Source of the DNA: Stegostoma tigrinum
Taxonomy: Eukaryota
Assembly: GCF_030684315.1 (NCBI RefSeq)
Contig: NC_081366.1
Span: 9,863,410-9,927,409, forward strand
Direction of reading: 5' to 3'
DNA length: 64,000 bases
Both the position numbers and the translations under genes were made by a program. The notes beneath the pieces are model-generated. The model saw only the letters and a list, made by a program, of their open reading frames with translations, was not told where the DNA came from and ran no database searches. Positions 31,299-64,000 of the stretch are shown here, in pieces (positions within the stretch are counted from its first letter, which is position 1; every line of letters begins with the position of its first letter).

Positions 31299-31399
31299 AT
31301 GTCAGCCGACGAGCAGCAGAATGCTTTGCTGAACAATTCGCAGCAGGATATCGCTAGCCAGACTAGTGTGGAAACGAGGACTACTGTCGCCAGCCAGAG
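31299..31399 (+). CDS. CD74: CD74 exon 1 coding part (cytoplasmic tail MSADEQQNALLNNSQQDIASQTSVETRTTVASQ)
   Basis: ATG at 31299 (atcATGt); acidic residues plus Leu-Leu as in Ii sorting signals; donor AG|GTGAGA at 31400, phase 2, compatible with exon 2; kB/PU.1/CCAAT sites just upstream. Confidence 0.85.
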
Positions 31400-35725: not shown

Positions 35726-35886
35726 AGAAGTGAAACCAACTGGGTGGAAAAAAAATCAGAAACGAACCCTAGAATGATCTGAATCACTCTGAGCGATTGT
35801 TTGCTATAAAGGCCAGTGGAATTTTCCAGAATTCCTGACTCAATGGCAGTTGAGATTGTTTCACTTTCAGGCAGGAGGGATTTTCC
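35726..35886 (+). promoter_or_regulatory. Candidate intron 1 immune enhancer (IRF half-site, kB, AP-1, ISRE, kB)
   Basis: AAGTGAAAC at 35728-35736, GGAATTTTCC at 35818-35827, TGACTCA at 35836-35842, GTTTCACTTTC at 35858-35868 and GGGATTTTCC at 35877-35886, in non-repeat DNA. Confidence 0.55.
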
Positions 35887-36084
35887 ACAGCAACTTGCAA
35901 AAAAAATCTTAGTATAATAAATCCAAGTCATTAGCACAATAGTTCATCCAGAAATGCCATAATGCAGCTCCCTGAATACGTCCCAGTTGCAGAAACATCT
36001 CAAATGAACAATTCTGCCCTCCTAATCCCTCCAGAGGAAAGCCCTAACACACTTACTTTAGTACCACAACTTACCCAGACTTCT

Positions 36085-36378
36085 AGAATCCCAAAATCCC
36101 TACAATGTGAAAGCAGGCCATTCAGCCCCTCACTAATCCTTGGAAGGACATCCCACTCCAGACCCATCCTATCCCTGTATTTCCCATGACCAATCCACTT
36201 AACCTACACATTCCTTGACATTATGGGGAATATCCCATGGGCAATCCATCTAGCCTGCACATCTTTGGACTGTGGGAGGAAACTGGAGCAAACTCCACAC
36301 AGATAGTTACCTAGGGCTGGAATTGAACCTGGGTCCCCAGTGCTGTAAGACAGCAGTGCTAACCACTGAGCCGCTGTC
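36085..36378 (-). mobile_element. HE1-like SINE in CD74 intron 1
   Basis: cagcagtgctaaccactgagccgctgt reverse-complemented head; ctgcacatctttggactgtgggaggaaac core. Confidence 0.78.
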
Positions 36379-36932
36379 CACACTTATCATCTTGACCGCT
36401 GTTCCTTGTTAGGGCAGTGAATGTTGTCTGAGGGAAAAGGTCACCTGGAGTAACACAGGGGGATGATGCACAGCTTAAAGGCAAGAACCTACTGTTATTA
36501 CTATTGAACCTAATATCTACTGTTACCACAAAATGTTGCCCCTCTTAACCATGACCCCTCTTTACCACCATGTCCATTGCCTTTTTTTTTCATCGAGGTG
36601 ATTACTGACTCTTGTTTGCATTAGCTGAGTGGAAAATATTTGGGACTTTCCTGATGCTGTTTGATCTAGAGAAGCCCGAATTCCAGAAACACAACAGGAA
36701 TTGATCAAATTCTCATGAGATTCACAAATTAGGGTGGGTCATGTTGAAATCTTCAAACTTGGACAACAGTAATATTTGACAGAATGGGTTCAGTAATGAA
36801 CGTTTAATGCACTGGGTAGGAGAACAAAGCCCTGCAGCTCTTCACCAAACATCGATGGAGAAACGGGGAGAGATTGTGATCTCGAGATGTGAGTAAACCC
36901 GTGGATGGTAGGCAATATTAACACAAATGGAG

Positions 36933-37146
36933 ATAACAAAGTGTGAAGCTGGATGAACACAGCAGGCCAAGCAGCATCTCAGGAGCACAAAAGCTGACAT
37001 TTCGGGCCTAGACCCTTCATCAGACTAGGTCTAGGCCTGAAACGTCAGCTTTTGTGCTCCTGAGGTGCTGCTTGGCCTGCCGTGTTCATCCAGCTCCACA
37101 CTTTGTTATCTTGGATTCTCCAACATCTGCAGTTCCCATTATCACG
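36933..37146. mobile_element. Fold-back mini-Penelope with 15-bp TSD in CD74 intron 1
   Basis: ~85-bp inverted arms; TTAACACAAATGGAG at 36918-36932 and 37147-37161. Confidence 0.9.
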
Positions 37147-37614
37147 TTAACACAAATGGAGCTAAGTTACATCGTCTGGTTCGCTGAAACAAGCCCATCA
37201 CCTGATCAGATGTGGTGGACTCTGTTATACCAAAGCACAGAACAGGCCCTTCAGTCCAACCAGTGAACTGGGAGACATGGCCTCACTGAATGGTGGACCA
37301 GATTGATGGGCTCGATGGCCTACTCCTGCCAAAACAAGCCTTTTACTGAGCAGTTAAACGAATGTCATGAGATTTAAGGGTATTGGAGTGGGAGGGATAG
37401 TTATGGTGAGGGAGATTCAAAGACAGTTTGGTCAACAATTAAGAGCTAACCAATCCAGCAAGAATGTACCTGTTGACTGGCTGTGAGAAGAATGGGGTTG
37501 TGGGAAGAGTTGGAAGGTCACATGGTAAAAACACCCAGCATGCACCTGGACAGAGTTATGGCAACTGCTTTGAACTTAGCATTAATGGTATTCGTTCATT
37601 GTTCTTCGTTACAG

Positions 37615-37793
37615 CAGCCGCACCCGCTCCAAGGGCCTTCTCTGGGGTGGTGTGACCGTGTTGGCGGCCATACTGATCGCCGGGCAAGTTGCCAGCGTTG
37701 TTTTTTTGGTGAAGCAGCAGGGCACGATAACCCGCCTGCAGCAGACGACCAATCTCATCCAGCAGAAGTACACCTCAAGCCAGAACCGACTCC
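37615..37793 (+). CDS. CD74: CD74 exon 2 (type II transmembrane segment; SRTRSKGLLWGGVTVLAAILIAGQVASVVFLVKQQGTITRLQQTTNLIQQKYTSSQNRL)
   Basis: Pyrimidine tract plus acag|cag| acceptor; TM helix with the Ii-diagnostic AGQ followed by QQG (human LLLAGQATTAYFLYQQQG); donor C|GTACGT, phase 2 to 1. Confidence 0.93.
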
Positions 37794-40260
37794 GTACGTA
37801 CACCGTGTCCCCTTCCCCAACGAACTGTTATCGTCTAAACCAATCTGAGGGCTGGGGCTGGGTGTGGGTGTGAGCAGAGCAACAAAGAACCAGTCGGTGA
37901 ATGGATTGAGGAAGACGGCATCAGCAATTGTAATTTGAATTCTGCCACCAGAATGGTTCACAAGTCTGAGTTAAACACCAGCTCCAGATGATTCCACCGG
38001 GAACTCCCATTTATGTTCCATCAGTCACCGTGGAGGGTGGGATGGTTTGTGGTGATTGTGATGAGTTGGACTATTCTCTTTTGGAGTAGTTAGTGGTGAG
38101 GAGAGATTTAGTAGGGTTACTGATTGCTACATTACTTTTCATGCTGTAACTGGGAAAAAACATTAAGTGCTTTGATATTACATGGTGGCCTAGTCTTTAA
38201 AACAGGCCATTCATCCCAATATTCATGCTGAACATCAGCTTCTTCCTGGTTTTCTTCATCTAGCCCCATCAAAGTATCCCTCTATTCCTTTATCCATCAT
38301 TTCCTATCAAATGCACCAACGCCATGGACCCAATCACTCCATACAGCAACGTATTCTACATTCTCACTGTTCTCTGGGTAAAGTATTCCTTCCTCTTTTC
38401 AGAGGAGAAAAAAGCTCTCCTGATTTTTCTGACTTGTTTTTAATTGTGACTTCCTCACGTTTGTGATGCCCCAACACCCCTTCTGATGAGTTGAACTAAC
38501 TTTTTGTCTACCCCACCAAACATTTTCATAATCTTCAAAACTTCCATTGAGTTGTTCCTCAGTTTCTCCCTTCTGGCTGGCAGATAGGCACAGGATATAA
38601 ACTAGCTACCAAAAACGCTATGGGGAGTGTGAGGAGTTGATACGACCTTGAACTCATAATCGGCAACGGTGGTGGAGTCAGATTAAGTCAGAAATTTCAA
38701 AAACCAAATGGATTTGGAGAGGAATAATTTGCAAGCTTCTGAGATTAAAGTCAGAAGTCACATGAAACCAAACTTATATTTCTGATGAAGGGTCTAGGCC
38801 CAAAACGTCAGTCCAATTGCTTCTCTGATACTGCTTGGTCTGCTGTGTTCATCCAGCTCTACTCCTTGTTATCTCAGATTTATATTGCAATGGGTTTACC
38901 TGAAATCGCTAGGTTTTGGAGTGCTGTGATTTAAAATAAACCTGTTAGACTCTAACCTGGTGTCATGTGATTTCTGACTTTGTCCACCCCGGTCAAACAG
39001 CAGCACCAACCCATTGGAGTTTAAAGCTGGGTGTGAGACTAGATTAGATATTTCCCAATGGACAGAATGGGCTGCACAGCCTCTTTCTGTTGTAAGGTTT
39101 TAGATTTTTATAATTCAAGGCTAGAATTATTGCCTGCTGTATTGTTCAATGAGATGATCGCTAACCTTTGTCCTTCCCTACTCTATCCACATTGGCTCCA
39201 TAAGTCTTTCGTAATCCGTCTAAAGATTGGATTTTCAAGCTTGTGACTGTGCTGGAATTTGAATTAAAAATGTGGGACATGATTAGAATCTGCGATTCAG
39301 AATGATGACAGCCATTATAATGTTAGCATCCTCGCTCTGAAGTCTGATATGGAAAGAATAGATTGTTTCATCTGCTTTTCTGTCAATTTAAGGACAGGAA
39401 GGAGATCTTTAGAATATTCTTCACAGTCAGAGATGTTTGTACATTTAAAGAGCATCAGAGGAGCAAGAAGGCTGACGTTTCGTCTTCAGAAAGGTCTAGG
39501 CCCGAAATGTCAGCCTTCCCGCTCCTCTGATGCTGCTTGGCCTGCTGTGTTCATCCAGCTCCACACCTTGTTATCTCAGATTCTCCAGCATCTGTAGCTC
39601 CTACTGTCTCTGTGCATTTAAATCCCACTGCCAATTAAGGGGAGGATTTTCCACATGTCTTTCCACAGCTTAAATGCATTAGGGCACTTTGCCCATTTTG
39701 AGGAAAAAAATGCTTGAATGCAGGTCAATACTTGTACACTGGTGACCAAGATTGTGGGGTGTTCACCTTTTGTGGAATAGACCCCGTTAATAGTGCATCA
39801 GTATTATAGCATGACATCTAATAGTGAATTTGGATATATGAAAATATTTAAAGTCTAGCTGCCAGCATGTCCTGGATTCCTTGGCAGTCTTTCTCCAATG
39901 TTCATAAAGTTTCCAAGGAGAATTGTTCATGGGGGATGATTGAAATGAAAGTAGTGTGTGGGAGATGATTCAGTTTTTCTCTGGTCTTCACAGTAGCACA
40001 ACAGGCTCATGCAGAAGGATTGTTTCTGTTTTGTATCTGAAGTCCTCTTGACCTATGAGAAGGCCATGTGAAAATAGTGCGGAGTTGGGCAAGTACTGGA
40101 AAATTGATTTTCCTGCTCAAAGAAAGCAGGGTTCATCATTGTCCTTCTGAACCCAGTTTGCACCCCTATCGGGAGACCAATGTCCAACCCCCGATCTTCC
40201 TTTCATGTTGCCACTAAGTCATACTCATAAAAATGCCACTCTCTTCTTTTTCTTTTTCAG

Positions 40261-40343
40261 CATCTAAGCCAATGATGCATGTCAAACCTATGATTTTAGA
40301 CATGCCCATGGCCTACATTGACCCAAATGCAGAACATCCAAAG
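40261..40343 (+). CDS. CD74: CD74 exon 3 (CLIP region; PSKPMMHVKPMILDMPMAYIDPNAEHPK)
   Basis: Long pyrimidine tract plus tttcag| acceptor; AAG|GTAATG donor; phase 1 to 0; MMHVKPMIL aligns with CLIP core MRMATPLLM (hydrophobic P1 and P9, Pro at P6). Confidence 0.9.
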
Positions 40344-41147
40344 GTAATGTCCAACTTCTAGAAAACCTAGAACTAGCACTCGCGGTTATCTCATGTGCAG
40401 TTTTTTAAATTGGATTTTGCTGGGCGCAACATTGACTTTTGCTTTCGTCTTGGTCAAATGCAGAGATTGATCTCCAAAACCAACTTGTTGGATGAAGAGA
40501 TCTTAGAATTCCAGTTAGCTGTTGATACTTGTCTCACTAAGCTGGGGGGATGGGAGAGAGGATGGGCGCCTCGCTTCCCATTCTGTCTCCCTCACTATGC
40601 CCAGGAACCTATCATGTTTCTTAGCTATAAAAACCTCGCCACATCATGGGCAGTGAAAGCTCCCAAATTCAGAGGCTGAGGTTACCTCCGTTTAAAATCA
40701 CTTTTGGCTTTAATTCCACCAAGTTGATGCTCTCCGTCCCATCTTTGATATTCAAGATTTTTGGATTGTCTCTTTACTAATCTTGATGGTGATCGCGTTG
40801 ACCTGGCTGAGTCTTTTTCATGACCAGCTGAGGATTAAACCGGGAACAGCTCTGCAGTATGTACAATAGATACAGTAGGAGCTTCTGCACCTAGCTGAGA
40901 GGGCCTGGATTCAGCCTGTCTCCTGCAAGGTAGCAGCTCTAGTACTTCCTCAGGACCTGAAGCAGCAACCTGAGAAAATTACTCTGTGCCACTTAACCTT
41001 GCAGAGCCTAAAATTGACTGTAATCATGTGGTCAGGACCGGAGCAAGGCATTGTGGTGCATTTTGATTTAAAAGTGCTTTATAATGGTTAGTTAAAAGTG
41101 GAAGTGAACAGTCACTTTGTTTATTGTTAATATTTATTTTCTAACAG

Positions 41148-41210
41148 TCTCCGAAACCCACTCCTGCCAAACCCCTGACTGTGCTGGAACAAGTGCGGGA
41201 ACTGCTGAAG
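41148..41210 (+). CDS. CD74: CD74 exon 4 (SPKPTPAKPLTVLEQVRELLK)
   Basis: ctaacag| acceptor and AAG|GTATTG donor; 63 nt, phase 0-0; EQVRELLK matches human DHVMHLLQ at the start of the trimerisation domain. Confidence 0.9.
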
Positions 41211-42624
41211 GTATTGTTGAAGGGGAATCTTTTCAAAGCTGTTGTGAACCAATAAAATGTTGTTTGTAGCAGAATGGGAGACCATTCAGTCCATCATGCC
41301 CGTGCCAGCTCCTGGAAAGAGCTATCTATTTAGTCCCATTCCACCAACTGCCCGCACCTAGAATGGCTGGCGCTTCAGATACATGGGATCACCATCCCTC
41401 TGCAAGTTCCATCATCCCCCTGATGTGGAGATGCATTGTTTTTCCTTCAGTATTGATGGGCCAATCTGTTGGAGTTCTGTCAGCACTTGGGACGTCTCTA
41501 TGGGGATGGTAGCAGCTGAAGAAGGCACCTTATCACCAACTTCTCTAGGTTATTTCAGGATAGGTAACAAAAATAGTGGCTTAGCTCCCAGCCCATCAAT
41601 GTATTGCATAAAAAGGCAAATTGAGTGTTTATGCAAAATATTTTGAGCGTTTACCATTTAATGTGCCACCACCTATTTCTAGCCATGCATTCCAGCAAGT
41701 CACTGCGTGATAACCTCCTGTGGTCAGAGGAGACCATCCCCTGCTCTCCCATTATTTCACATTACCTGAAGCTCTTCCCCTCTGACACCGTACGGAACTG
41801 GCCGCAGTGTCCCAACTGGAGCTGATCTACTGATTTAAAGATTGCTGAATGAGATTGTAAATGCCAAGGACTGTCAGGACTGTGTGGAAAATGAATGGTT
41901 AGTCCACAGGGGTAACAAATTGGGGAGCTCCTTCAAAGAGCTGGCCTAGGCTCAATAGACTGATTTGGTTCTGCAGCATCAATTCACTCTCACATTGTGA
42001 CCTAAATAGAGCACTGTTGCCTCGCAGCGCAAGGGGCATAAGAAAGATCATGGCCAATTTTCTCACGGATTCCAGTCCACTTACCTGCCTCTTCTCTATA
42101 ACTCTTAAGTCCTTTGCTGTTCAAAAATCCATGCATCTTGCCAGAAACCAAGTTTGATTCCAGCCTTGGGTGACATTTTTTTGTGGAATTGCACATTATC
42201 TACTGCCTAACCTTTCAAGGTGCTCCAATTTCCTCCCACAGTCCAAACATGTGCAGCTTGGGAGAATCAGGCAGCTTAGCATGGCCATGGTCCCCAGGGA
42301 TGTGCAGGCTAGGTGAATTGGCCATGGGGAAATGCAGGGTTACAGGGATAAGGTGAATCTGGATGGGATGCTGTTCGGAGGCTCAGTGCGGACTCAGTGG
42401 GCCCTGGCTTGCAGTGCAGGAATTCTGGAATTCTAGAAAAAGGGCACAAATTATCAAAGGCTTTGACAACTCAACTTTGCCATCCATGGTAAAAAGGCAG
42501 CTCATGAATACTAGAGCTATTTGGGTGTGGCCTGTCCTTGGCTTAGTATAACTGGAATGAAGAGTTGACTGATGGGAAAATGGTCAGCCAAATGATGACA
42601 TTGTCTTTGACTTTTCATTGGCAG

Positions 42625-42720
42625 AAAGAGAATGTAACCAACGAGATTCCAGAATTTAACAGCACTTTCTCTGCCAACCTCGACCTGCTGCGAAGCAGCA
42701 TGACGGAATCTGAATGGCAG
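42625..42720 (+). CDS. CD74: CD74 exon 5 (trimerisation domain; KENVTNEIPEFNSTFSANLDLLRSSMTESEWQ)
   Basis: 96 nt, phase 0-0; P-x5-F-x2-NL-x2-L-x3-M-x4-W pattern as in human [25 protein letters not shown]; sequons NVT and NST; donor CAG|GTTAGT. Confidence 0.93.
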
Positions 42721-43818
42721 GTTAGTGTTCATGGTACTGAATTATAGCACAGATACAGGCCATTTGGTCCATTTGCTCCATACTGGCTTCTACACGCTAA
42801 AAATAACTACCTGCTGTCAAACATCCCTTCAACCTACTCACCCAAACCTTCTATTCCTTTCTCCCATGTGATACCAATAAATATTGTGCATCTATTAAAA
42901 TAAATTAACAGGCATTCATTGGGTGTCTGCCTGGCTTACTTTCTGTAATTTTCATCCCAAATACTCCCAGTGGTAGTGAATTCCAGATTTGCAACACACT
43001 TTCTCTGGTGAACATAATAAATCCAATAAGCAGGAGAAATTTAACATGTTACACATTCACTCCTCACTTTGAATTCCTCTACAAAGTAGGAACTGGAAGT
43101 GTCCATTCAGCGCATTGGGGGCTTACCACACAAATAAGTGATGTTATATGGATTGGAGTGGCTGTGTGACGTCAGGTATATAGGCTGATATCCCAGGGAC
43201 TGTTGGATGATATCAAACAGCGCATCCCTTTGCTGCTCAAAATAGACTGATGACTGTATCCAACCAGCCCATTTATTGCAAAACTCCGAACTTAATGTTA
43301 AATGTGGTTCTGCAATTGTGCAGCACTTACTGAACAAGTCTGAGTGTATTACAAATTATACCCTCAACAAATTTAACACTACCAGTCAAACTCTTAATGT
43401 GGCTTCCTTATGCTTGCCAGAAGGTACACATATTCAGACACAGGGACTTGTCCTCCCCAGGAGAAAGGAACATCTCCAAGTATCGTCCCTCTTTAAAATT
43501 AAATACAACTGCCTAGGACATTAATTCCATAGTGTGTTCTTCACTTGCTAGTCAATAAATGCCTTCTTTTTTCAAATTGTATAAATTGATGTTCCCTTTG
43601 AAATTTAGCATTCTTGCATTTGTGCCGATGAGCGCAGGACAGAAAGTTTAGGCGCCATTCGGTTTTTGTTTCAGTTGCACTAAAATTTAATTCCCTCACT
43701 TGGCTGGGGTGGGGGGGGGGGGGGGGGGGCGTTGTGGGTGAAATCCCACAAACCAGTTCTAATGACCCATGCCCAATTCACAAAAGCTGGCAGTTGATAT
43801 TATCTTTTCTGTTTACAG

Positions 43819-43939
43819 GGCTTCGAAACTTGGCTCCGAAACTGGCTCTTCTTCCAGCTCATTCAAGAGAAGAAGCCTGCTCCAACAACCAGTGCACCCC
43901 GATTCGACCCTATGCCTGAACCTAAACCTAAACCAAGTG
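43819..43939 (+). CDS. CD74: CD74 exon 6 (GFETWLRNWLFFQLIQEKKPAPTTSAPRFDPMPEPKPKPS)
   Basis: tttacag| acceptor; FETWLRNWLFFQL matches human FESWMHHWLLFEM; donor G|GTACGT, phase 0 to 1. Confidence 0.93.
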
Positions 43940-45584
43940 GTACGTGACTGCCTTGTATTTCATTCCTTGTCCTGAAGGAGGTGATCTCACAGTGCTGGCT
44001 CGCCTTCACCGTACATTGGAAAGAATGAGGGTCTTGCATTTATTTGTTTCACGTTCTAAGGGCATGCCAATGCATGTTTTAGGCAATGGACATCATCCGA
44101 AGTACAATCACTGTTGGTCTGCAATATTGACCAATGATTGTAGCCTACATCAGTGACCAACCTGTTTGACAAATGGAAACTGTGATCGGAGAGCACAGGT
44201 TTCGTCTACGGGATCACCGCTACAACAACGGGTTAGCATTGAAATGGCACGTGTTGCGATGGAGTGGTAATGTCACAAAATTAACAATTCTGAGATCCAG
44301 GCTTGTACCCTGGGAACATTGGTGGGATTTCAATTCACTTGAAACACCTGGAATTGAAAACTAGTCATGATAAGGGTCAGGTGCAGTGTACACCTATCAT
44401 CTTCTCTCGTGTCCTTTTCAGGCAGGAATGTTGCCATCCTACCCTGGTCTGGTCTACATGTGACTCCAGACTCTCAGCAATGTGATTAGCTCTTAACTGC
44501 TTCCCCCAACTATTCAAATCAAAGGGCTGTTAGGGATGGGCAACAAATGCTCACTTTGGTAAAGATCACCTGAAGAAACAAATACAGGAATTTGAAGAGG
44601 CCCCAAAGACCTGTACAGTTAGTGAAGTACATCTCGAGTGGTCTCCATGGAGACTATTAAAAATCTCAAATAGAAAGGGGAGGCCAATATTTGTCCCTTA
44701 ACCAACTTTACTTGGGAGGAAAAAAAACAAATTATCTGCTTACTTTCTCATTTACTGTATGGCCTTTTCTTCATTGGTTGTACATTTGAAAGGGAAACAT
44801 TCATAGAACATAGAACTGGAGAAAAGATATGGTACAGAAGGGGGTCCATTCAACCCCATCACATCAGCAGGGGCTAGTCCATTGTAATCCCACTGTCCAG
44901 CACCTGGTGTGTTGCTTTGCTGGTTCCAACTTCAGGGCATGTTCCTCACCTCTGTGAATAAGGTGAGGGTCTCTGCCTCAACCACCAAACTGGGCAGTGG
45001 ATTCCAGTCACCCACCCAACATGTTCCTCCTGTCCACTCCAATCCTTCTACCAGTCATCTTCAATATGTGTCCCTGCTAGGGAAAACAGGAGGAGCGAGA
45101 AGGAAAGGTAGAGGTGATGGACGTTTAGGGAGCCTGTTCCAGAATTTTGGTCCGGGAAGGTCAAAGTCAATCGTGGAAGGGAATAAAAATCAAAGATTTG
45201 CGCAAAACTAGAATCAGAACATGGCAGTTAGATCCGGAGGGCCATAGAGCTAGGGGTTCATAGAGGCAGGGGCGAAGGCATGGAGGGCTGGAGAGGAAGG
45301 GGTGAGGAGATTGAGGACTGGGGTTGGAGAAGGGGGTGGGCACAGAGGGCCAGAGAAGGAGGGTTGAGGGCACTGAGCAGGGGTGGTGAGGGGGCATTTG
45401 AAATCAAATCTGAGGATCTTCAAGTGAGACTCTACTAAGCGCCTTTAAAATTGCATGCACTGTGGGAGGGACAGGATGTGAATCCCATTGGTACCAAGCT
45501 GCGCTCTTCTACCAGTGATGAAAGAAAGACGTTAGAATGATTTTGGTGTGTTTGAAACCCCTTCTTTGTTCCTGTTTACGACAG

Positions 45585-45668
45585 AGAGAAAGATTTTCTC
45601 CAGTGTTGTGGTGAAGCCAATGATGGTTAACCTTCCAGAACCTGAAAAAGCTCCTGTATCAAAGAAAG
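45585..45668 (+). CDS. CD74: CD74 extra linker exon (ERKIFSSVVVKPMMVNLPEPEKAPVSKK), symmetric phase 1-1
   Basis: Pyrimidine tract plus acag| acceptor; AAAG|GTAACT donor; 84 nt, open in the frame required between exon 6 and the Tg exon; non-repetitive. No transcript evidence. Confidence 0.72.
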
Positions 45669-48600
45669 GTAACTTTTTAAAAAATCCACTGTTCAGTCCA
45701 GAGCAAATATTGGTTTGGAAGGGGCTGGCCTGGGTGCAGTGAGAGTAGACCCATGCCCCATCCCATTGTGGAGATCACAGACTCAAATGGATGGGCGAGA
45801 AAGTCAGGATTGGCATCATGATGTTTTGCACTTGTTCACAATCACATTGTCCAGAACCAGGGAGTGCCACACACAAAGGCAGAGGTTCACAACTAATCTG
45901 TGGGAGCAATATTGAACTTGCTTTTGGCTCCCGAGGAAGTGAATAGATTGTGAGACTTGATGACTGAATGAATATCTGATCTGTGGGACAGGCTAAGGAG
46001 CCCGTATGGTTTATTGAAATGCAATTGCAGTCGGTTTCATTCAGAAGAGTTTTCAAATACAGTCTCTGGGTGACTCTGAGTCATGTGTATGGGTGAGGCT
46101 GACAAGCTGGGAGGAACAGATGACTTTGTCTCCCTCATGTAGGTCTCATATAGCAGATGCATTGTCACCGGTTACAACATGCACACAATGTTAGAGATAA
46201 CAGTGTGGAGCTTGAAGAAACACAGCAGGCCAGGCAGCACCAGAGGAACAGGAGAGTTGACGTTTCAGGTCAGGTCCCTTCTTCAGAAATGCGGAAGGGG
46301 AAGAGAGCTGAAAAATAAATAGTGAGGCGAGGTTGGGCTGGGAAAGATCGGTGGGATGGCGATAGGCAAGTACAGGTAGGGAGTGGTCAGTGGGACGGGA
46401 GGGGTGGATAGATGGGAGAGAAGATGGACAGGCTGTGTCAGGTCAAGGAAGCAGAGATGAGAAAGAGGGTTAGTCATGGGATGAGGCTGGGGGTGGGGAG
46501 ATTTTAACTGGTAAAATTCACATTTAGGCCATTGGCCTGTAGGCTCCCAAGGTGGAATATGAGGTGCTGTTCCTCCAGTTTGTGGGTGTGTTCATGTAAG
46601 TGCGACTTTGAACCAAAGCTCATAATGTGTACAGGGTTGAATTCACCTGAATAGTGCAAGGGATAAGTCATGTTATGCGGACAGACTTATGACATTGGAA
46701 TTGCCTGCATTAGAGACAGAAGTCTTAGATGAGATTTGCCTTTGATTAAGGAGTCAATTTAAAGGAAAGATTGACTTACCAGTCATAGGAAACAATCATA
46801 ATGGTGTTAAGAGAAACATTTTTATCTTGAGGTAGGGAGAATTTTTACCACTGGGAATTTTTTTGAGGCTGGGTTGATCTTGCATCTAAGGAAGAGACAG
46901 GCAAGTACTGATAATGCCGGGAGTAAAACTGGCTGTTGGGCCGCTTTAGTTTGATGAACCAGAGGACAGACAGATGGGCAGAACAGTCTCCTGTCCTTAG
47001 AGGTCAAGGCTCAACTATGAGGTTGTACAACTGCAGAGCCCAGCTGATACGAAAGGCCCTGAATCATTATTGCTGAATCGGGAAAGACAACCTGGTTCCA
47101 AACAAACTCGGTCACAAACAGTAATAGCCGTTTTTTATTTTTGGAGAGAGATGATGATTAGTTGTTGATTGATGGCAAGAGCGATCGATGAGGGTAATGG
47201 TGGGGTCCTTTTGCTTTTGAATCCCTGCACTCTGTGAGAAATTAAGGTTTTGCTGAGCTACTTTCTGAGAACAGCTCCGAGTCACTCCCGGTGGCATAAT
47301 GTGTCAGCTCAGACCAGGTAAGCACAGCAGGTTTCGCTGTTTTATGGACAACACAACAACTTCTTGGTCACTTTCACTGATAGCGTTGCTTCCACTTCAG
47401 AGTCATATTTTTGAATTGCACTCCCAACCTACAGGCTGCCATGGTAGGACTGCAAGTAGAGTTGCTGACATTATCCAGAGGTTTGTAAAACTAAAGGGTC
47501 CAGCCAAAAATACAACACAATGGTTTAATATGCAATCCTACAAACATTAGTGAAACAATTAACCATGAACTGCCTCTCACAGCCTGTGAACTGTCTCCTA
47601 TATCATTGACCCTTCCCAACCTTTTGATCTCCCTCAGTTAATGTGCACCCAGACTGATCACTTGAAAGACACATTCCATATCAAAATTCTCAAATAATCT
47701 TCTAAGGTGCAAATTCAAGCTGAATTCACATTATTCAACACTGGACTTTCATGGATTTGCAAACTATGGATTTGAAGAGCTGGCTGCAAGCTGATCTCAG
47801 AGCCAAAGTGAGTGTTGGATGTTCCGTTTCACCCCAGAGGCCTCTGCCTTTCTCTGTTGTTAAATCCAGGACTGATCTACTCATCCTGTACAGGGCGACA
47901 ATTTCCAAAGAGTTGAGTTCCTTCAGGTTCTTTTGAGTGATAAAGATACAGCTTTTCACTCGTACACCGTCACAACAGAGACAAGGTCAGAAACCACACG
48001 ACCCCCGGTTACGGTCCAACAGGTTTATTTGAAAACACAAGCTTTCGGACCACTGCTCCTTTGTCACGTGATGAAGGAGCAAGTGCTCCGAAAGCTTGTG
48101 ATATCAAATAAATCTGTTGGACTATCACCTGGGTTGTGTGGTTTCTGACCGTGTCCACCCTAATCAAACAGCAGCACGGGCACTTACAGGAATGATCCTG
48201 TTAGTACAGTGACTGCAAGAACAAGTCAGAAACTGGGAATCCTGTGCTGAGTAACTCACTTCCTGACTCCCCTAAGTCTGTTACGGTCTACAAGTCAGGA
48301 GTGGGATGGAATACTCCTTCCCCACTTGCCTGGATGGGTGCAGCTCCAACGACACTAAAGAAGCTCGGCAGCACCTAGGCTGATGCAAGACACTTCAACG
48401 ATATGACATGCACTAACATTCAGTCTCTGCACCACCGATGCACAGTCGCAGTAGTGTGTACCATCTACAAGATGTACTTCAGCAACTTGCCAATATATTT
48501 TTGATAATCTCCCAAACTGACAAGATCATCTGGTTGGAAGGATAAGGACAACAGGCACATGGGAACACCACCATCAGCAAGTTCCTCTCCAAGCCACACA

Positions 48601-49496
48601 TCATTCTAATATGGGAATATATCACTATACCTCCACTTCCGGCTCAAAATCCTGAACTTCCCTCTCTAACAGCATTGTCGGTTTTACTTGCATGCCAAAG
48701 CCTGCGGTAGCGTAAGGAAGCGTGTTCTCTCCCTCCCTCAGGGACAGGCAATGACTACTGGCCTAGGCAGCAATGCTAACATTAATGAATAAAACAAGTC
48801 GAGGAAGCAGCCCATTTGGAGCCTGCCCAGATTTCCTGATAACCTTCTCAACAGGGAGGTCTTATGCTGAATGTTTGATCTCGTTTCTCAATGTCCCATT
48901 TACCAACCTCTCACTCCTCCTTCAAATCCCTTCTTTTACTGGAGAACATCCATGAGTTAACAGGGTTGCAAATCACATCTCCAATAACACCATCCAATTA
49001 GACAGGCCTTGGACAGAAACTTGGCAGCATCAAGTTGAACAAGGAGAATAAAAGTGGCAACAATAAAGTGCATTTACTTAGTGCCTTTCACATTGTAATG
49101 TACTTCGCTGGACTGATTGACACCAAGACACGCAAGGAGAGAACAGAACAAACATGTTCGAAGAAGTAGCTTTTTCAGGAGAAAGTTGGGGTGAGAGCTG
49201 TAGAGGTTTGGAAGAGGAATTCCAGAGTTGAGGACCTAAGGCAATTGAAGGAATGGCTGACAGTATCGATGTAACTAAGTGTACACAAGAGGTCAGACTG
49301 AGCAGGGGGTAGCAGCCTTGGCACATTTGGAGGTTACGCAGACCGGCGGCGGGGGGGCGCGGGGAGCAGACAGACCACGATGGGGTTAAACACGAGAGGT
49401 GAGGATCGTAAAATCCTGAAAGTGGGCTCCAGGCAGTGGAATGTGGGGGAAGAAAAGCATCATTTGTGATGTCAACCACTATCTTCCCTCGTTCAG

Positions 49497-49691
49497 TGCG
49501 CAGCGTGGACACCGAGTGTGAGAGACGTCGCCAAGCGAAGATTGTTCCTGGAGTTTACCGCCCCACTTGTGATGAGATGGGAAATTATGAGGCAAAGCAA
49601 TGTTGGCCGAGCACAGGCTTCTGCTGGTGCTCCTATCCGAATGGAACAGAGATCTCAGGAACATCCACACGCGGGCATTTAAGCTGCGAAC
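49497..49691 (+). CDS. CD74: CD74 thyroglobulin type-1 exon (p41-type, exon 6b), copy 1
   Basis: Six Cys, QC and CWC motifs (YRPTCDEMGNYEAKQCWPSTGFCWCSYPNGTEISGT, cf. human p41 [36 protein letters not shown]); 195 nt, phase 1-1; ttcag| and |GTACGT sites. Confidence 0.95.
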
Positions 49692-51272
49692 GTACGTTTC
49701 CGTTTTCTTCATCTACGTGATAGTGTGAATGTGATTTAAAAGTCCTCCATGTTATGGGAAATGGATTCTCAGACACAGGTGGATCCTTTTGCCCGTACAC
49801 CTCAAGACCTGGGCAACATCCAGGGGTTAGTAACGCTCAGACTATACAAGAACATTGAAAATAAGAGAAGCTGGGCTTCAGTCCTCCACATTCAGTAGCA
49901 ATATCATCAATAAATCCCCCACTGACAACATCATAAATGTCACCAATAACCTCAAACTTAACAGGATCGTTCATGTAAGTACAATGGCTACAAGAGCAAG
50001 TCAGAAACTGGGAGTCCTGTGCTGAGTAACTCACTTCCTGACTCCCCTAAGTCTGTTACGGTCTACAAGTCAGGAGTGGGATGGAATACTCCTTCCCCAC
50101 TTGCCTGGATGGGTGCAGCTCCAACGACACTAAAGAAACTCGGCAGCACCTAGGCTGATGCAAGACACTTCAACGATATGACATGCACTAACATTCAGTC
50201 TCTGCACCACCGATGCACAGTCGCAGTAGTGTGTACCATCTACATGATGTACTTCAGCAACTTGCCAATATATTTTTGATAATCTCCCAAACTGACAAGA
50301 TCATCTGGTTGGAAGGATAAGGACAACAGGCACATGGGAACACCACCATCAGCAAGTTCCTCTCCAAGCCACACATCATTCTAATATGGGAATATATCAC
50401 TATACCTCCACTTCCGGCTCAAAATCCTGAACTTCCCTCTCTAACAGCATTGTCGGTTTTACCTGCATGCCAAAGCCTGCGGTAGCGTAAGGAAGCGTGT
50501 TCTCTCCCTCCCTCAGGGACTGGCAATGACTACTGGCCTAGGCAGCAATGCTAACATTAATGAATAAAACAAGTCGAGGAAGCAGCCCATTTGGAGCCTG
50601 CCCAGATTTCCTGATAACCTTCTCAACAGGGAGGTCTTAAGCTGAATGTTTGATCTCGTTTCTCAATGTCCCATTTACCAACCTCTCACTCCTCCTTCAA
50701 ATCCCTTCTTTTACTGGAGAACATCCATGAGTTAACAGGGTTCGCAAATCACATCTCCAATAACACCATCCAATTAGACAGGCCTTGGACAGAAACTTGG
50801 CAGCATCAAGTTGAACAAGGAGAATAAAAGTGGCAACAATAAAGTGCATTTACTTAGTGCCTTTCACATTGTAATGTACTTCGCTGGACTGATTGACACC
50901 AAGACACGCAAGGAGAGAACAGAACAAACATGTTCGAAGAAGTAGCTTTTTCAGGAGAAAGTTGGGGTGAGAGCTGTAGAGGTTTGGAAGAGGAATTCCA
51001 GAGTTGAGGACCTAAGGCAATTGAAGGAATGGCTGACAGTATCGATGTAACTAAGTGTACACAAGAGGTCAGACTGAGCAGGGGGTAGCAGCCTTGGCAC
51101 ATTTGGAGGTTACGCAGACCGGCGGCGGGGGGGCGCGGGGAGCAGACAGACCACGATGGGGTTAAACACGAGAGGTGAGGATCGTAAAATCCTGAAAGTG
51201 GGCTCCAGGCAGTGGAATGTGGGGGAAGAAAAGCATCATTTGTGATGTCAACCACTATCTTCCCTCGTTCAG

Positions 51273-51467
51273 TGCGCAGCGTGGACACCGAGTGTGAGAG
51301 ACGTCGCCAAGCGAAGATTGTTCCTGGAGTTTACCGCCCCACTTGTGATGAGATGGGAAATTATGAGGCAAAGCAATGTTGGCCGAGCACAGGCTTCTGC
51401 TGGTGCTCCTATCCGAATGGAACAGAGATCTCAGGAACATCCACACGCGGGCATTTAAGCTGCGAAC
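51273..51467 (+). CDS. CD74: CD74 thyroglobulin type-1 exon, copy 2 (identical, 1776 bp downstream)
   Basis: Same exon sequence and splice sites as copy 1; ORF 51212..51496 translates identically to ORF 49436..49720. Confidence 0.8.
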
Positions 51468-53872
51468 GTACGTTTCCGTTTTCTTCATCTACGTGATAGT
51501 GTGAATGTGATTTAAAAGTCCTCCATGTTATGGGAAATGGATTCTCAGACACAGGTGGATCCTTTTGCCCGTACACCTCAAGACCTGGGCAACATCCACG
51601 GGTTAGTAACACTCAGACTGTACAAGAACATTGAAAATAAGAGAAGCTGGGCTTCAGTCCTCCACATTCAGTAGCAATATCATCAATAAATCCCCCACTG
51701 ACAACATCATAAATGTCACCAATAACCTCAAACTTAACAGGATCGTTCATGTAAGTACAATGGCTACAAGAGCAAGTCAGAAACTGGGAGTCCTGTGCTG
51801 AGTAACTCACTTCCTGACTCCCCTAAGTCTGTTACGGTCTACAAGTCAGGAGTGGGATGGAATACTCCTTCCCCACTTGCCTGGATGGGTGCAGCTCCAA
51901 CGACACTAAAGAAACTCGGCAGCACCTAGGCTGATGCAAGACACTTCAATGATATGACATGCACTAACATTCAGTCTCTGCACCACCGATGCACAGTCGC
52001 AGTAGTGTGTACCATCTACAAGATGTACTTCAGCAACTTGCCAATATATTTTTGATAATCTCCCAAACTGACAAGATCATCTGGTTGGAAGGATAAAGGC
52101 AACAGGCACATGGGAACACCACCATCAGCAAGTTCCTCTCCAAGCCACACATCATTCTAATATGGGAATATATCACTATACCTCCACTTCCGGCTCAAAA
52201 TCCTGAACTTCCCTCTCTAACAGCATTGTCGGTTTTACCTGCATGCCAAAGCCTGCGGTAGCGTAAGGAAGCGTGTTCTCTCCCTCCCTCAGGGACAGGC
52301 AATGACTACTGGCCTAGGCAGCAATGCTAACATTAATGAATAAAACAAGTCGAGGAAGCAGCCCATTTGGAGCCTGCCCAGATTTCTTGATCACCTGTTC
52401 ATAAAAGCCATCTAGATTCGGCCTCACTGATCCAATGGATCACCATCATCCAAAACTTTCTCAGGGTGTTCCCAATTTCTGTAACCTTTTTGTGAAGACC
52501 TTCTGCCTGATTTCACTATGAAATGTGTCTTTGTCCAATTTACAGGCTAGGTTCTCTCATCTGGATGTCCCCCACTCCACCACCCACACCCCCAACATCA
52601 GCATTAAGTCTTTATCTTTCTTTAGCGTAACATAAGAACATAAGAAATAGGAGCAGGAGTAGGCTATCTGGCCCATTAAGCCTGCTCCACCATTCAATAA
52701 GATTATGGCTGGCTTTTCCATGGACTCAGTTTCATATACCCACCTGCTCACTGTGACCCTTAATTCCTTCACTGTACTAAAACCTATCTATCTTTGGCTT
52801 AAAAACATTCAAGGAAGGAGCCTCCCTGGCAGGGAATTCTACAGATTCACAACCTTTCGGGTGAAGAAATTCCTCCTAAATCAGCTTCCCCCTTTATTGT
52901 GAGGCTATGCCCTCTTGTTCTAATTTCACTCACGAATGGAAACCATGTCCCTGCCTCTAGCTTATCTATTCCCTTCATAATTTTCAATGTTTCTATAGGA
53001 TCTCCCCACCCCCTCATTCTTCTGAATCATTTTTAAACATTTCGTTCATTATCAGGCCTCAGGGGAAATACAAGTTCAGCAAAGTCCAAGGGCAGGATTG
53101 CACAAGACCCAAGTATTGGGATCTGCAGGTAGCAGGAGTGAGAGCTCTTGGGTATTGAGATCAGTAATTGTTCATTAGAGTCATAAATGCCATTCCAGCA
53201 TTGATAACCAATGCAGCACACCTTGAGGAAGACTTTTTAAGATGATTTGGATCTTGAAAAGAATTGGATTGTCAATTCCTTTGATGTTCGTATTCAGGTC
53301 GCTGAATTGTAGTAATATTCTATCCCTTCAGATTAGAGAGGCCTGTGTGCATGTACAAGCAATATCCTGTGAACCTAAAGAATTGCAAGCGTGTTATAAT
53401 GTGCAAGGAGGCCCTTTGGCCCATTGTGCCTACACTGGTTCTTCAAAGAGCAAATTAATAAAGCAGGAGCTGACAGAAAACCAGCCAAACTATTGCAACT
53501 ACACAAAGGCTGTACACTATATGTACTATAGTGTAATATACCTTGCCTAACCTATTTAACTTCCTCCTACATACATGCTCCCCATCGGAATCTACCTGTC
53601 AGTGTAATTTGCTCTGTACTCTGTGTCCTTTTGAGGATTTTACCTGTTCATCTATATTCATGAGGGAAACTTCATAAGCAATGTTCCTGGAATTCCAGAC
53701 AGATTCAACTCAAACATCCAACCCTCCTTCACTATCAAAGATTAATCTGCTTAGATTATACAAAGAAATGCCTTCAACAGGCTGGATTTTATTGAAGGTA
53801 TAATTAATTGTCACTTTTTTTAAAAACTATTTCGTCTGCCTGTCTTTAATTGAGGTTCATTTCGATCTTTAG

Positions 53873-53917
53873 GCTTTATAAACTAAGATGATCTGAGCGT
53901 GTCTGGCTTGGCAGCAA
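53873..53917 (+). CDS. CD74: CD74 penultimate exon, (R/G)FIN*DDLSVSGLAA, with in-frame TAA at 53884-53886
   Basis: ctttag| acceptor and A|GTAAGT donor; 45 nt, phase 1-1; acidic...SGL resembles human ESLELEDPSSGLGV. The CDS would end at 53886: 246 aa with no Tg exon, 311 aa with one, 376 aa with two. Confidence 0.7.
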
Positions 53918-55973
53918 GTAAGTAAGAGATTTTGTTTTAAATCAAGTTCATGAAATCAGAATTTGAACAGAACTTTCTCACATAGACACACCACACCAAG
54001 CAGTTTCATTGTGTACAGGCTCCTCATAAACCTTCTGACCTTATCCCCTTGTCCAAAACTCTGCTGCCCACACCTCAACTGGCTCCAAGGTCCCCCTCTC
54101 AATGTCCTGTCCAACCTACATTTATTCCTGTTTAGACAATGACCTAATTTAACACCCTTAGTCCAGTCAATTCCACCTGCCCTTACGTGCGGCTGGGATA
54201 GAGAGGTGTGAGCGTGTAGGGAAGGGAATTGTGCTGCTTATAACTGGCGGTTCTGTTTGCAAGTATGGCAGAGACAGTTTAGTGGTGGTAGTATTGCTGA
54301 GCTGGTTGCTGCAAAGCTCGGGGGTCAGAGTGCAAATCTCGCTGTGGGAGTCGCTTAAATTCAATCAAAGACAGTGGAATTAAAAGTGAGCCTCAGTAAA
54401 AGTGACTGTGAAACTGTTGTGCATTACCATAAGGAGCCACCTGGTTCACTAATCATCACTTGTTTTGGCCTGCATGTGACTCCAGATCTAAAGCAGTGTT
54501 CTCTGAAACGGCTTAGTGTGAAGGCGCATTAACGGGTAAGGAACAAATCATGCTTGAGTCAGCAATGCACACACCCAGGGAAAAATGTCCTCACGAAAGT
54601 TGTGTTCAATGGAAATTAGAATATGTTGCAAACTAAATATTAAAGGGGACAGTTTTACATCAGCTTTTCCTCATTGAGTCACTGCCTTGACCTTGACTGT
54701 GTTCAAATTTCGCTCCTGAGACTTGAACACAAAATGTAAATGGATTCTTTCCATTGCTGTTGGAGGTTCCAGGCACTCTTTCAGGTGAATTTAAAATGTC
54801 CTGTCAGCACTTTTTCATACTGCTGCTGTTATTGCCAATATTTATCTTGAATTAATTCATCAATTTGACCATATCAAAACCAAATTATTTGTTCATTATC
54901 CCTTTGTTGTTAATGCATGTTTTGCCAGCCACAGTGCCTACATTATAATATAAATTGCACTTTGAAGACTTTTCATTGGGTAATGTGCTTTGGGATATCA
55001 TAAGGCCATGAAAGGCACAAATGATGTGAAATACTAGCCTTTCTTTATTTTAAATCTTTGGAAACAAAATCCATTTGAAAGCAACATGAAGAAAATTGTT
55101 GAAATTGCCAAATGTTGCGTGGAATTTTGTAAACTCACGTAAACTTTCTCCTTCATTTCAGTGAATTAAGAGCTCGCGGTGGACAAGCAAGCAAAATCTG
55201 ACTGGCTTCACTCCAGAAATTATACATTAATTGCAACTTCTGATTTTTATTAACCTTGGGTATGATTGCTAACTGTTGAGAGCTGATCTCCTTATCTGGC
55301 TGATGTACTTTCCATTTTTGTTCAAGACTTACCCTCTGATTTTATTTTAAACAGAAAAACAAATTGCCCAAATCTTTGACATCGCTCACGTTACTTCCCT
55401 AAAAAGAGTACTGTTTCCACTAGACATTCCATAGGAATATTTTGGTCCCATTTCCTTGCAGAGTGTGGTTACAACACCTGATTGTGCCCAGCACCCTCAC
55501 CAGAAGTTTGTTCTGTTCTCCTGCCAATTATGGCTGGAGAACTAGAATGACATCCCACAGATTTCAAAGTCCCCTAAGCTTGTCAATGAGTTGCTTTGGA
55601 AATTCAAGAGACCTGGATTTTAAAATGCCACACAGGACCGATGTAATTGTGTGAATCCCAAAGAATTCTAGACTGCTACAAAGGAAAATCAGTAGCCTTG
55701 TAGTGGAACCCCGGAATTAGTAATAGTCTTTCGGTAACACAAAAAACCTGGATGAGATACAAAAGAGGATGATGGTTTTGAAGTTGGCTCTCTTCATTAG
55801 GAGGCGTTCTGCTGATGAGTTCCAACCCTCCTGGCTTGTCCACCTCAATTTGAAATTAAGACCCCAATTCATTCATTTACTCTGGTTTACTACGCTGGAC
55901 TAACTGCAGTGGTGGAATATCACCACATAGACAGCAGAAGAAGATTATCATCCTGCGTCAACTGGGATGCTCC

Positions 55974-56071
55974 GTAAATGTCAGCTTTGACAGCCCCCAC
56001 CCCCACCAAATTTGGGTTTGTCAGTGGGCAGAAACAGTAAATGTTGGCCTTGCCTGCACCACCATCCCCCC

Positions 56072-56129
<58 letters not shown>

Positions 56130-56154
56130 TTGGGTTTGTCAGTGGGCAGAAACA
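55974..56154 (+). repeat. 63-bp tandem duplication whose second copy carries an (AC)~26 microsatellite (56074-56126)
   Basis: ATTTGGGTTTGTCAGTGGGCAGAAACA at 56010-56036 and 56128-56154; both units start GTAAATGT. Confidence 0.9.
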
Positions 56155-56629
56155 CGTTCCTTGATAGTTTTGCTTTTTGAAGTGAAGTGATTTTTGCCCA
56201 CCAGTCCATACTTTCGGAGTTTGAGCCTGTTGGCGAGATATCACTTTATATTCCCAAGCCATCCTTCACCAGATCCCATATTATAACTGTGTAACTGTTT
56301 TGTTTTTGATTATGTAGAACAGAAATAGACCTAACGGCTCAGCCAATCCATGCTGGTGTTCATACTTCACTAGGCTCTTCTCCCTTATTTTCTCACCTAA
56401 ATTGGCCATCGTAATCCTTCTCCCACAAAGGCTTGATGATAAATAACAAGGTGGATATAATCCTGATGAGGGACCATCAGCAGAAGGTCATTATACACAA
56501 TCGCTTTTTTAAAAAGCTGGTATTGTCTGTAAGCTACTTGTGAAAACTGTCATTGCTTCCTGATTTTTTTAATTATTATTTGTAACGCAATGGTGATCGC
56601 TTAACTGTCGATGGGGATAATTATTTTGC

Positions 56630-56635
56630 AATAAA
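56630..56635 (+). terminator. Candidate polyadenylation signal AATAAA
   Basis: AATAAA followed by GT/T-rich ctgttcgtgtgttctattttgg; other AATAAA hexamers occur near 57226 and 57388. Confidence 0.45.
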
Positions 56636-57399: not shown

Positions 57400-58093
57400 G
57401 AGATAATGGGAACTGCAGATGCTGGAGAATTGCAAGATAATAAAATGTGAGGCTGGATGAACACAGCAGGCCAAGCAGCATCTCAGGAGCACAAAAGCTG
57501 ACGTTTCGGGCCTAGACCCTTCATCAGAGAGGGGGATGGGGAGAGGGAACTGGAATAAATAGGGAGAGAGGGGGAGGCGGACCGAAGATGGAGAGTAAAG
57601 AAGATAGGTGGAGAGAGTGTAGGTGGGGAGGTAGGGAGGGGATAGGTCAGTCCAGGGAAGACGGACAGGTCAAGGAGGTGGGATGAGGTTAGTAGGTAGC
57701 TGGGGGTGCGGCTTGGGGTGGGAGGAAGGGATGGGTGAGAGGAAGAACAGGTTAGGGAGACAGAGACAGGTTGGACTGGTTTTGGGATGCAATGGGTGGG
57801 GGGGAAGAGCTGGGCTGGTTGTGTGGTGCAGTGGGGGGAGGGGACGAACTAGGCTGGTTTAGGGATGCAGTAGGGGAAGGGGAGATTTTGAAACTGGTGA
57901 AGTCCACATTGATACCATATGGCTGCAGGGTTCCCAGGCGGAATATGAGTTGCTGTTCCTGCAACCTTCGGGTGGCATCATTGTGGCAGTGCAGGAGGCC
58001 CAATTATGGACATGTCATCAAGAGAATGGGAGGGGGAGTGGAAATGGTTTGCGACTGGGAGGTGCAGTTGTTTGTTGCGAACTGAGCGGAGGT
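57400..58093 (-). mobile_element. Young Penelope-like element, 3' part
   Basis: Near-identical to 29217-29877; ORF 57752..58003. Confidence 0.9.
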
Positions 58094-62500: not shown

Positions 62501-63128
62501 GTCCTGTGAATCCTGCCATTTTTAATTAGGTAAAATTGGAATTTCCGCTCAGGTTGTTCACGTTAGTTTACATTAGTTTCCAAAACTTTCCTCAATCTGT
62601 ATTCAGGTGACGTCTACAGCCATCCAGGGTCAGTGTTTACCCCTTTAAAGCTGTTTTACTTTATGAAAGGCCTCCAATATTAGAACCACAATGGAAATTG
62701 AAAATTAAAGTTGAAAATCTACATTTTCTATCACTGCTGTGATTCCTCCATACCACAAAGAAGAATTACACACAATATTTCTCCCTTTTGTTTACAATGT
62801 CGACATGAAGCGTGTAAAAACTAAGTCTTCTAGTGATTGTTAAAAGTGTGGACTGAAATAAGAAAGAATTGTTTCAGAACTATTATATTGAAGGAATGTG
62901 TGTATAGTACGTGGAACCAGGGTCAAGTGAATCCTATTGACTGTGAGATCCCTGATTCAGGTTGTTAATCCGGGCCAATCAGGGAGCTCTGGCGGACAGA
63001 TATAAACAGGAGGTACAGAAAGTCTCCTTATCCTAGGGACTGGCTTTGAGCTGGCTGGTCAGGACCATGTGCTGTGTATGTGTAAATGCAGGGTAAATTT
63101 GTTGACAGGATAATGGCCTCTCTGTCAT

Positions 63129-64000
63129 CAGAGAGGGGCATGGGGAGAGGGTTCTGGAATCCCCACCCTTGTCTGCTTTCTGGAGAGACCACTCTCTCCA
63201 TGACTCCCTTGTTCGGTCCACACTGCCCTCCAACCCCACCACACCCGGCAACTTCCCCTGCACCCGCAGGAAATGCTACACTTGCCCCCACACCTCCTCC
63301 CTCACCCCTATCCCAGGCCCCAAGATGACTTTCCATATTAAGCAGAGGTTCACCTGCACATCTGCCAATGTGGTATACTGTATCCATTGTACCCGGTGTG
63401 GCTTCCTCTACATTGGGGAAACCAAGCGGAGGCTTGGGGACCGCTTTGCAGAACACCGCAGCTCGGTTCGCATCAAACAACTGCACCTCCCAGTCACGAA
63501 CCATTTCCACTCCCCCTCCCATTCTTTAGATGACATGTCCATCATGGGCCTCCTGCCGTGCCACAATGATGCCACCCAAAGGTTGCAGGAACAGCACCTC
63601 ATATTCCGCTTGGGAACCCTGCAGCCCAATGGTATCAATGTGGACTTCACCAGCTTCAAAATCTCCCCTTCCCCCACCGCATCCCTAAACCAGCCCAGTT
63701 CGTCCCCTCCCCACACTGCACCACACAACCAGCCCAGCTCTTTCCCTCCCCCCACTGCATCCCAAAGCCAGCCCTGTCTGTCTCTGCTTCCCTAACCTGT
63801 TCTTCCTCTCATCCATCTCTTCCTCCCACCTCAAGCCGCACCTCCATTTCCTACCTACTAACCTCATCCCACCTCCTTGACCTGTCCATCTTCCCTGGAC
63901 TGACCTATCCCCTCCCTACCTCCCCACCTATACTCTCCTCTCCACCTATCTGCTTTTCTCTCCATCTTCGGTCCGCCTCCCCCTCTCTCCCTATTTATTC
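63129..64000 (+). mobile_element. Penelope-like element with a short inverted 5' piece, running off the window
   Basis: GIY-YIG ORF 63169..63795; 63129-63160 is an inverted copy of the element's own 3' region. Confidence 0.9.

Follow-up and report, generated by a model that had tools for sequence, protein, structure and literature searches.

The 64-kb stretch of the genome of the carpet shark Stegostoma tigrinum analysed here, called the window below, contains the gene encoding CD74, the invariant chain. This identification is based on Pfam and on protein matches. The profile PF09307 (CLIP/MHC2-interact) matches positions 37586-37870 with an E value of 2e-13, following a single transmembrane segment, and PF00086 matches both of two thyroglobulin type-1 (Tg) exons with 59 bits, against a cut-off of 20.6. 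When the Tg exon is used as query, six chondrichthyan CD74 proteins are retrieved, that of the whale shark being the top match (86%). The spliced CD74 product is 86.8% identical to that of the whale shark, about 85% to that of the nurse shark and 72-74% to those of the bamboo and epaulette sharks. On the basis of this orthology, S. tigrinum CD74 can be expected to bind MHC class II molecules.

Seven exons located 5' of the Tg pair, from 31299 to 45668 on the forward strand, were placed by tblastn with shark CD74 proteins. Exon 1, whose coding part (31299-31399) specifies the cytoplasmic tail, is followed by exon 2 (37615-37793), which carries the transmembrane segment and the PF09307 match, by exon 3 (40261-40343), which holds the CLIP-like region, and by exon 4 (41148-41210). 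The trimerisation domain is also present: it is encoded by exon 5 (42625-42720) and ends in exon 6 (43819-43939), which continues into a Pro-rich linker, and these two exons match shark CD74 at 80-91%. The matched shark proteins carry PF08831, and their profile matches the structures 1IIE and 8VRW. Exon 7 (45585-45668) is a linker exon of phase 1-1. Contigs of two RNA-like sequencing runs described below, X5 and X6, have a loose end before 43816 that matches exon 5 and join exon 6 to exon 7; in X6, exon 7 is joined in turn to the Tg exon.

Several minor features of these exons can be mentioned. Linker exon 7 is absent from one bamboo shark model (P0002) and may therefore be optional too. An Arg is encoded at 37625-37627, directly before the transmembrane segment, where the whale shark, the nurse shark and most sharks have a Cys and the rays a Trp; the Cys of human CD74 equivalent to this residue is a palmitoylation site. 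At 45628, all four of the runs compared show a C that differs from the window and is silent, in the third position of a Val codon, and at 46884 both DNA-like runs show a T that also differs. Each of these letters represents either another allele or an assembly error.

Two copies of the Tg exon are found downstream of exon 7, at 49497-49691 (copy 1) and 51273-51467 (copy 2), both on the forward strand. As claimed by the original prediction, this 195-nt exon occurs twice, splice sites included, at a distance of 1776 bp, and the copies are letter-for-letter identical. Both are recognised by Pfam and by comparison of the sequences, copy 1 also by alignment and structural modelling. Each contains 65 codons with six Cys and a CWC motif, is preceded by the acceptor cag and followed by the donor gtacgt, and the intron that separates them measures 1581 nt. 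Both exons are in phase 1-1, their junction would create the CTG codon that had been foreseen, and the reading frame is open through the two copies. The three differences previously noted between the intron copies were all found, at 48470/50245, as a C inserted at 50743, and at 49823/51599. The contrast drawn earlier between identical exons and differing introns is correct as to both facts and carries no weight in itself. Indeed, at the divergence of the array the probability of observing no difference in 195 nt is 0.37-0.42, and since chance alone leaves the exon unchanged about four times in ten, its identity is evidence neither of selection nor of an artefact. The identical run around the exon spans 855 bp (48968-49822), which has a probability of 0.03-0.09 under uniform placement, calculated post hoc, and one run, X1, has a variant at 49131, within this stretch. 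Selection on the identity of the Tg exon was considered in the light of these two probabilities and dropped as unsupported.

The repeat carrying these exons exists as had been proposed, its extent having been drawn too narrowly, and the complete array reaches from 48186 to 52396. It comprises 2.37 copies in the order R1-U1-R2-U2-R3, in which R (660 bp) is present three times and U (1115 bp), which contains the Tg exon, twice. The boundaries obtained by self-comparison are 48186-48845 for R1, 48846-49960 for U1, 49961-50620 for R2, 50621-51736 for U2 and 51737-52396 for R3, the likeness of which fades across its last 10 bp. When 48240-50610 is compared with its offset copies, 14 places differ in 2371 bp (13 substitutions and one inserted base), which corresponds to a divergence of about 0.6%. 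R1 shows 10 differences from R2 and R3 within its first 54 bp. In the 595-bp core of R, the three copies have just 2-3 private changes each, those of R2 including the letters at 50245 and 50521, and each Tg exon sits between 595-bp direct repeats that are 99% identical.

R can be considered as a fragment of an interspersed repeat, because sequences elsewhere in the window match it at the DNA and protein levels and because its summed depth is very high. It may be a CR1/HER1-like LINE; the ORFs resembling it elsewhere in the window gave no Pfam match. A palindromic element of very high copy number (47980-48155), recognised by its inverted arms, by a self-match of 84% and by a summed depth of 117,014 in X1, ends 30 bp to the left of the first base of the array; part of it is also found at 38925-39006.

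Four of 23 listed sequencing runs were compared with positions 43700-50020 of the window, which include the left flank, R1 and U1. X1 and X4 are DNA-like and belong to one study, possibly the source of the assembly, and X5 and X6 are RNA-like and belong to one other study. The comparison leaves aside X2, X3, X7 and X8 from the same organism, X9-X20, from two other organisms and with small shares, and X21-X23, which consist of bisulfite reads. X5 and X6 were taken as RNA because the words they contain amount only to the share of the exons (0.38 and 0.36, for an expected 0.40) and because of their GT..AG joints. All four runs are assembled contigs, whose depth is not a copy number and measures expression poorly, and no contig spans the array. 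In X5 and X6 most unique intron bins are without cover, which would fit poly(A) selection and argue against circular RNA; such holes between contigs prove nothing and were not counted.

The RNA-like runs contain joints from Tg exon to Tg exon, from exon 7 to Tg exon, from Tg exon to a downstream cassette and from exon 7 to the terminal exon. The first of these, the junction predicted from the sequence, connects 49691 to 49497 and is present in both RNA-like runs and in neither DNA-like run, with a depth of 191.6 in X5 and 1464.3 in X6. As the compared stretch held one unit, the use of copy 1 is indistinguishable in these data from that of copy 2. In X6, linear entry into the Tg exon from exon 7 (5434.1) and linear exit to the cassette are both present; the exon 7-Tg and Tg-Tg joints add up to 6898, in agreement with the interior of the Tg exon (7090 and 6667), and the Tg-Tg joint reaches about 27% of the exon 7-Tg joint in contig depth. 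In X5, the main contig leads straight from exon 7 into the terminal exon, and the depth of the Tg contig (191.6) is roughly one tenth that of the contig with exons 6 and 7 (1779.5), which shows that most transcripts lack the Tg exons. By a rough estimate, no more than a few per cent of the CD74 mRNA would contain both copies. A local dip was also seen in the Tg contig of X6, where the depth is 5533 over 49530-49589 against 7090 next to it, a gap close to the depth of the Tg-Tg joint (1464). One of the copies might carry a variant here, but the run lists no alternative letter over this interval.

The Tg-Tg joint would result from ordinary linear splicing and give isoforms of 374 or 376 aa. Provided that the duplication is real, we hold this origin of the joint to be likely, and it is the simpler account because two real exons lie in order with no long inverted repeats around them. 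Neither an intron of 1581 nt nor an exon length divisible by 3 raises a barrier that would make the two copies mutually exclusive, and the joint found in both RNA-like runs favours their joint inclusion, unless it is circular. This last possibility has to be weighed. The duplication could be real and the joint mainly due to circular RNA, produced by back-splicing of one or both exons from a lariat, in which case linear mRNAs would never contain more than one Tg exon and a protein with two domains would not be made. In X5 the Tg contig indeed closes on itself as a loop of 225 nt (195+30), and the exon 7-Tg joint is not among the joints listed for that run, which has 36 more joints and 446 loose ends beyond these. 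Tg exons that are mostly skipped (1779.5 vs 191.6 in X5) point in the same direction, as does the share of the joint in X6, which by a rough estimate on contig depth is about ten times that expected if two exons that are seldom used were included independently of each other; because of this excess, either the inclusion of the two exons is coupled or the joint is partly circular. Plain splicing nevertheless suffices to connect two identical exons with canonical sites, placed in order and 1581 nt apart, the longest inverted pair beside either Tg exon is 22 nt, and X6 shows both a linear entry and a linear exit. A mainly circular origin of the joint is thus regarded as unlikely. The reading considered probable is that of a tandem duplication of the Tg exon in CD74, with joining of the two exons in transcripts and a minority of mRNAs in which both copies encode two identical p41-type domains. 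A minor two-domain CD74 protein is likely made, the function of which is a matter of prediction.

The 3' part of the gene model determines the size of these products. The terminal exon (55162-56635, forward strand) contains two codons, the stop and the 3' UTR. Its start is given by X5, in which the main exon 6-7 contig runs on behind 45668 into letters matching the acceptor at 55162, and its end was placed from an AATAAA at 56630. A cassette exon of 45 nt (53873-53917, forward strand), which possesses a donor site of its own, contains an in-frame TAA at 53884-53886; X6 joins the Tg exon to this cassette through a loose end behind 49692. The isoforms of 246, 311 and 376 aa originally predicted for zero, one and two Tg domains are obtained only with this cassette; without it, the products would have 244, 309 and 374 aa. 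The whale shark protein P0001 ends like the cassette with an early TAA, whereas in the bamboo sharks, Heterodontus and Heptranchias the frame continues here for 15 residues. Judging from these sequences, the cassette TAA is a putative loss of the C-terminal tail common to S. tigrinum and the whale shark.

At the protein level, C7, C24, C35, C42, W43, C44 and C63 of the Tg domain, which make up the six Cys and the CWC motif, are invariant across 21 chondrichthyan sequences, and so are the loop residues P17, G18 and P22. The alignment-based model of a single Tg domain has a pLDDT of 89, and the single-sequence model one of 55. For this single domain, the best Foldseek match is 1ICF_I, the p41 fragment in its complex with cathepsin L (TM 0.85, rmsd 1.5, 47% identity), and the next best is saxiphilin. 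Each Tg domain would therefore be predicted to fold like the p41 fragment and to inhibit or chaperone cathepsin L-type proteases in the MHC II compartment, inhibition being suggested by the 47% identity. To our knowledge, many Tg1 domains are not shown inhibitors, and the literature searched yielded no inhibition data for shark Tg domains. Among the mammalian proteins, the human p41 fragment inhibits cathepsin L with a Ki of 1.7 pM (PMC2192513), p41/p43 modulate or chaperone cathepsins (PMC3861868, PMC12731121), and these forms represent 10-40% of the invariant chain in antigen-presenting cells (PMC3861868).

The gene and domain order of S. tigrinum CD74 is that of the p41/p43 isoform (PDB 1ICF, 8VRW). 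The optional phase 1-1 Tg exon of mammals is exon 6b (PMC12731121), the Tg exon is likewise optional in the shark, and the Tg form is minor in both (PMC3861868), with a shared predicted fold (TM 0.85). The two systems differ in that only S. tigrinum has tandem Tg exons joined in RNA. Among 61 other CD74 proteins, 52 have one Tg domain, nine have none and none has two. These comparators were chosen by the N-terminal part of CD74 out of 189 proteins, 39 of them being chondrichthyan and 22 taken from the best 150 representatives, clustered at 50% identity; the annotated CD74 of S. tigrinum itself is not included, so that a gene model with two Tg domains may already exist for it in a database. Owing to this clustering and to the use of the best 150 representatives only, a species-specific CD74 with two Tg domains could be hidden elsewhere. 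None was found in the literature searched, in which subscription papers are mostly outside coverage. A choice between zero and one Tg domain was thus kept across the jawed vertebrates sampled (0/61 with two), and S. tigrinum departs from this norm of at most one domain from an optional exon by its two exons and its Tg-Tg joint. This is a variant feature, which gives no ground to deny CD74 orthology.

The closest relatives in this comparison are the invariant chains of the whale shark (P0001) and of the nurse shark (P0008/P0017), which are 85-87% identical to S. tigrinum CD74; the latter chain was reportedly described by Criscitiello in 2012. Like S. tigrinum, the whale, nurse and bamboo sharks (P0003 cluster) have forms with and without Tg, the extra linker exon and an optional C-terminal cassette. 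Unlike S. tigrinum, all 39 chondrichthyan proteins compared have zero or one Tg domain, a count that concerns annotated proteins and not genomic introns.

Natural inhibitors of cysteine cathepsins with several Tg domains exist in saxiphilin, tick IrThy and equistatin (PMC10889554). These multi-domain thyropins (MEROPS I31) resemble the tandem form of CD74 by their consecutive Tg1 domains in one chain. They are secreted and their domains have diverged, whereas in shark CD74 the domains are identical, optional and carried by a trimeric type II membrane chaperone. The shark duplicate, if transcribed with both exons, would represent thyropin domain multiplication at an early step, with copies not yet diverged. 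In the tandem form, the spacer between the final Cys of domain 1 and the initial Cys of domain 2 is eight residues long. A two-headed cathepsin inhibitor is plausible. The likeliest effect predicted for the tandem form is that each trimer would carry a modestly higher dose of inhibitor, as opposed to a new activity; a raised p41:p31 ratio, as suggested originally, is a possible effect. The gain of a domain by intragenic exon duplication also has a parallel in the cat AIM exon 3 variant, in which a young duplication of one domain-coding exon adds a domain in an immune gene (PMC12125908). The duplication in cats is already known as a polymorphism and has a clinical association; the shark CD74 duplicate concerns an alternatively spliced exon.

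A stronger proposal is that the two-domain form has been selected as a two-headed inhibitor binding two cathepsins, with gene conversion keeping the two copies the same and a single cell type including both of them. The 855-bp identical run (P 0.03-0.09) speaks for it, together with an average of about two units per haplotype in both DNA-like samples, a joint present in both RNA-like samples in a share above the independent expectation, and the natural existence of multi-Tg inhibitors (PMC10889554). The identity of the exon is nevertheless expected by chance (P about 0.4), the X1 variant at 49131 falls inside the identical run, fixation cannot be read from four samples, the spacing of eight residues may hinder double binding, and identical copies allow no selection test. 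Selection of the two-domain form is accordingly judged very unlikely. The most far-reaching reading, in which this would be the first known two-headed invariant chain, with both Tg exons switched on together in cathepsin-rich antigen-presenting cells, two proteases bound simultaneously (a trimer offering up to six sites), antigen processing changed and an exon copy number varying from 0 to 3 between animals, is speculative and seems improbable. If this two-headed, copy-variable reading were true, it would offer a natural dose series for the role of p41. The probable reading, that of a duplicated exon included twice in a minority of mRNAs, would provide a natural two-exon allele transcribed with both exons, in which the control of cathepsins by p41 could be probed for dose dependence. 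Should the two-Tg isoform be rare noise or a circle, the locus would simply be a case of exon duplication by repeats, of an ordinary kind and in a single lineage.

That the duplication itself is real is supported by depth, taken from single contigs and not from summed depth. In X1, the flanks have depths of 14.1, 18.1 and 18.5 (17.5 was used), the U contig 35.9, or 2.05x, and the R core 59.1, or 3.38x. In X4, six flank contigs range from 3.07 to 6.2 (4.9 was used), U is at 9.39, or 1.92x, and the R core at 17.3, or 3.53x. From 31-mer counts in the window, the expected ratios are 1.9 for U and 2.6 for R with two units, and 1.0 and 1.6-1.9 with one unit. When contigs from other loci serve as reference, the ratios become 1.62 for U and 2.67 for R in X1 (21 values), which is lower, and 1.82 and 3.36 in X4 (10 values), which is similar; both sets are far from the one-unit values. 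The depth thus does not halve over the unit, and its value of about twice the flank in both DNA-like runs matches two units. The excess of R above the expected 2.6-3 likely comes from other copies of the repeat. The runs also contain letters that mark the copies: 48363 (R2/R3) in X1 and X4, 48546/48548 (R3) in X4, the inserted C of U2 in X1 and, in X4 and the RNA-like X5, a letter private to the middle copy R2 (48746 A>T, corresponding to 50521). The two intact, identical, phase 1-1 Tg exons therefore form a tandem duplication, present at about 2x depth for U and 3x for R.

The artefact that the original prediction had kept as an alternative, an assembler linking two haplotypes via the near-identical R repeats, is largely rejected and appears extremely improbable: no contig spans the array, a chimeric middle copy would look alike whether it came from a crossover or from the assembler, and a divergence of about 0.6% is not far above the mean pi of 0.002 given for the epaulette shark in PMC10587355, but U stands at 2.05x and 1.92x instead of 1.0, R at about 3.4x instead of 1.6-1.9, X4 and X5 each contain the letter private to R2, and both RNA-like runs contain the Tg-Tg joint. 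The tandem Tg copy should consequently stay in the assembly and not be purged as a haplotype duplicate.

The duplication had also been called recent, a description that is correct only as regards sequence divergence. The mutation rate of sharks is low, 7e-10 per generation in the epaulette shark (PMC10587355), and at this rate 0.6% amounts to about 4 million generations, with a wide interval and with a part that may be allelic diversity predating the event. Given this slow rate, recent need not mean young in years. The array may have arisen by misaligned recombination, or by repeated template switching, between short stretches of the R repeat flanking the exon. These stretches, one to each side of the Tg exon, would come from one kind of interspersed repeat, measure about 54 bp and be 81% alike. 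In the simplest course, the jump was repeated once and left at weak homology; a quick series of unequal crossovers is the other possibility. One event or a quick series is indicated because the private changes in R1, R2 and R3 number only 2-3 per copy. Since each exon lies between 99% identical direct repeats, other Tg copy numbers can be predicted, and unequal crossing-over between these repeats may yield alleles with zero, one and three exons.

Other repeated elements are present in the window. Weak GIY-YIG matches were obtained in ORFs at 6690-7838 (+), 25121-25708 (-), 29539-30579 (-) and 63106-63792 (+), which we assume to be likely Penelope-like retroelements. Three of these four ORFs lie at or near 39-bp tandem arrays (7440-7552, 29556-29667 and 63664-63774), and a fourth array of this type is found at 57772-57883.
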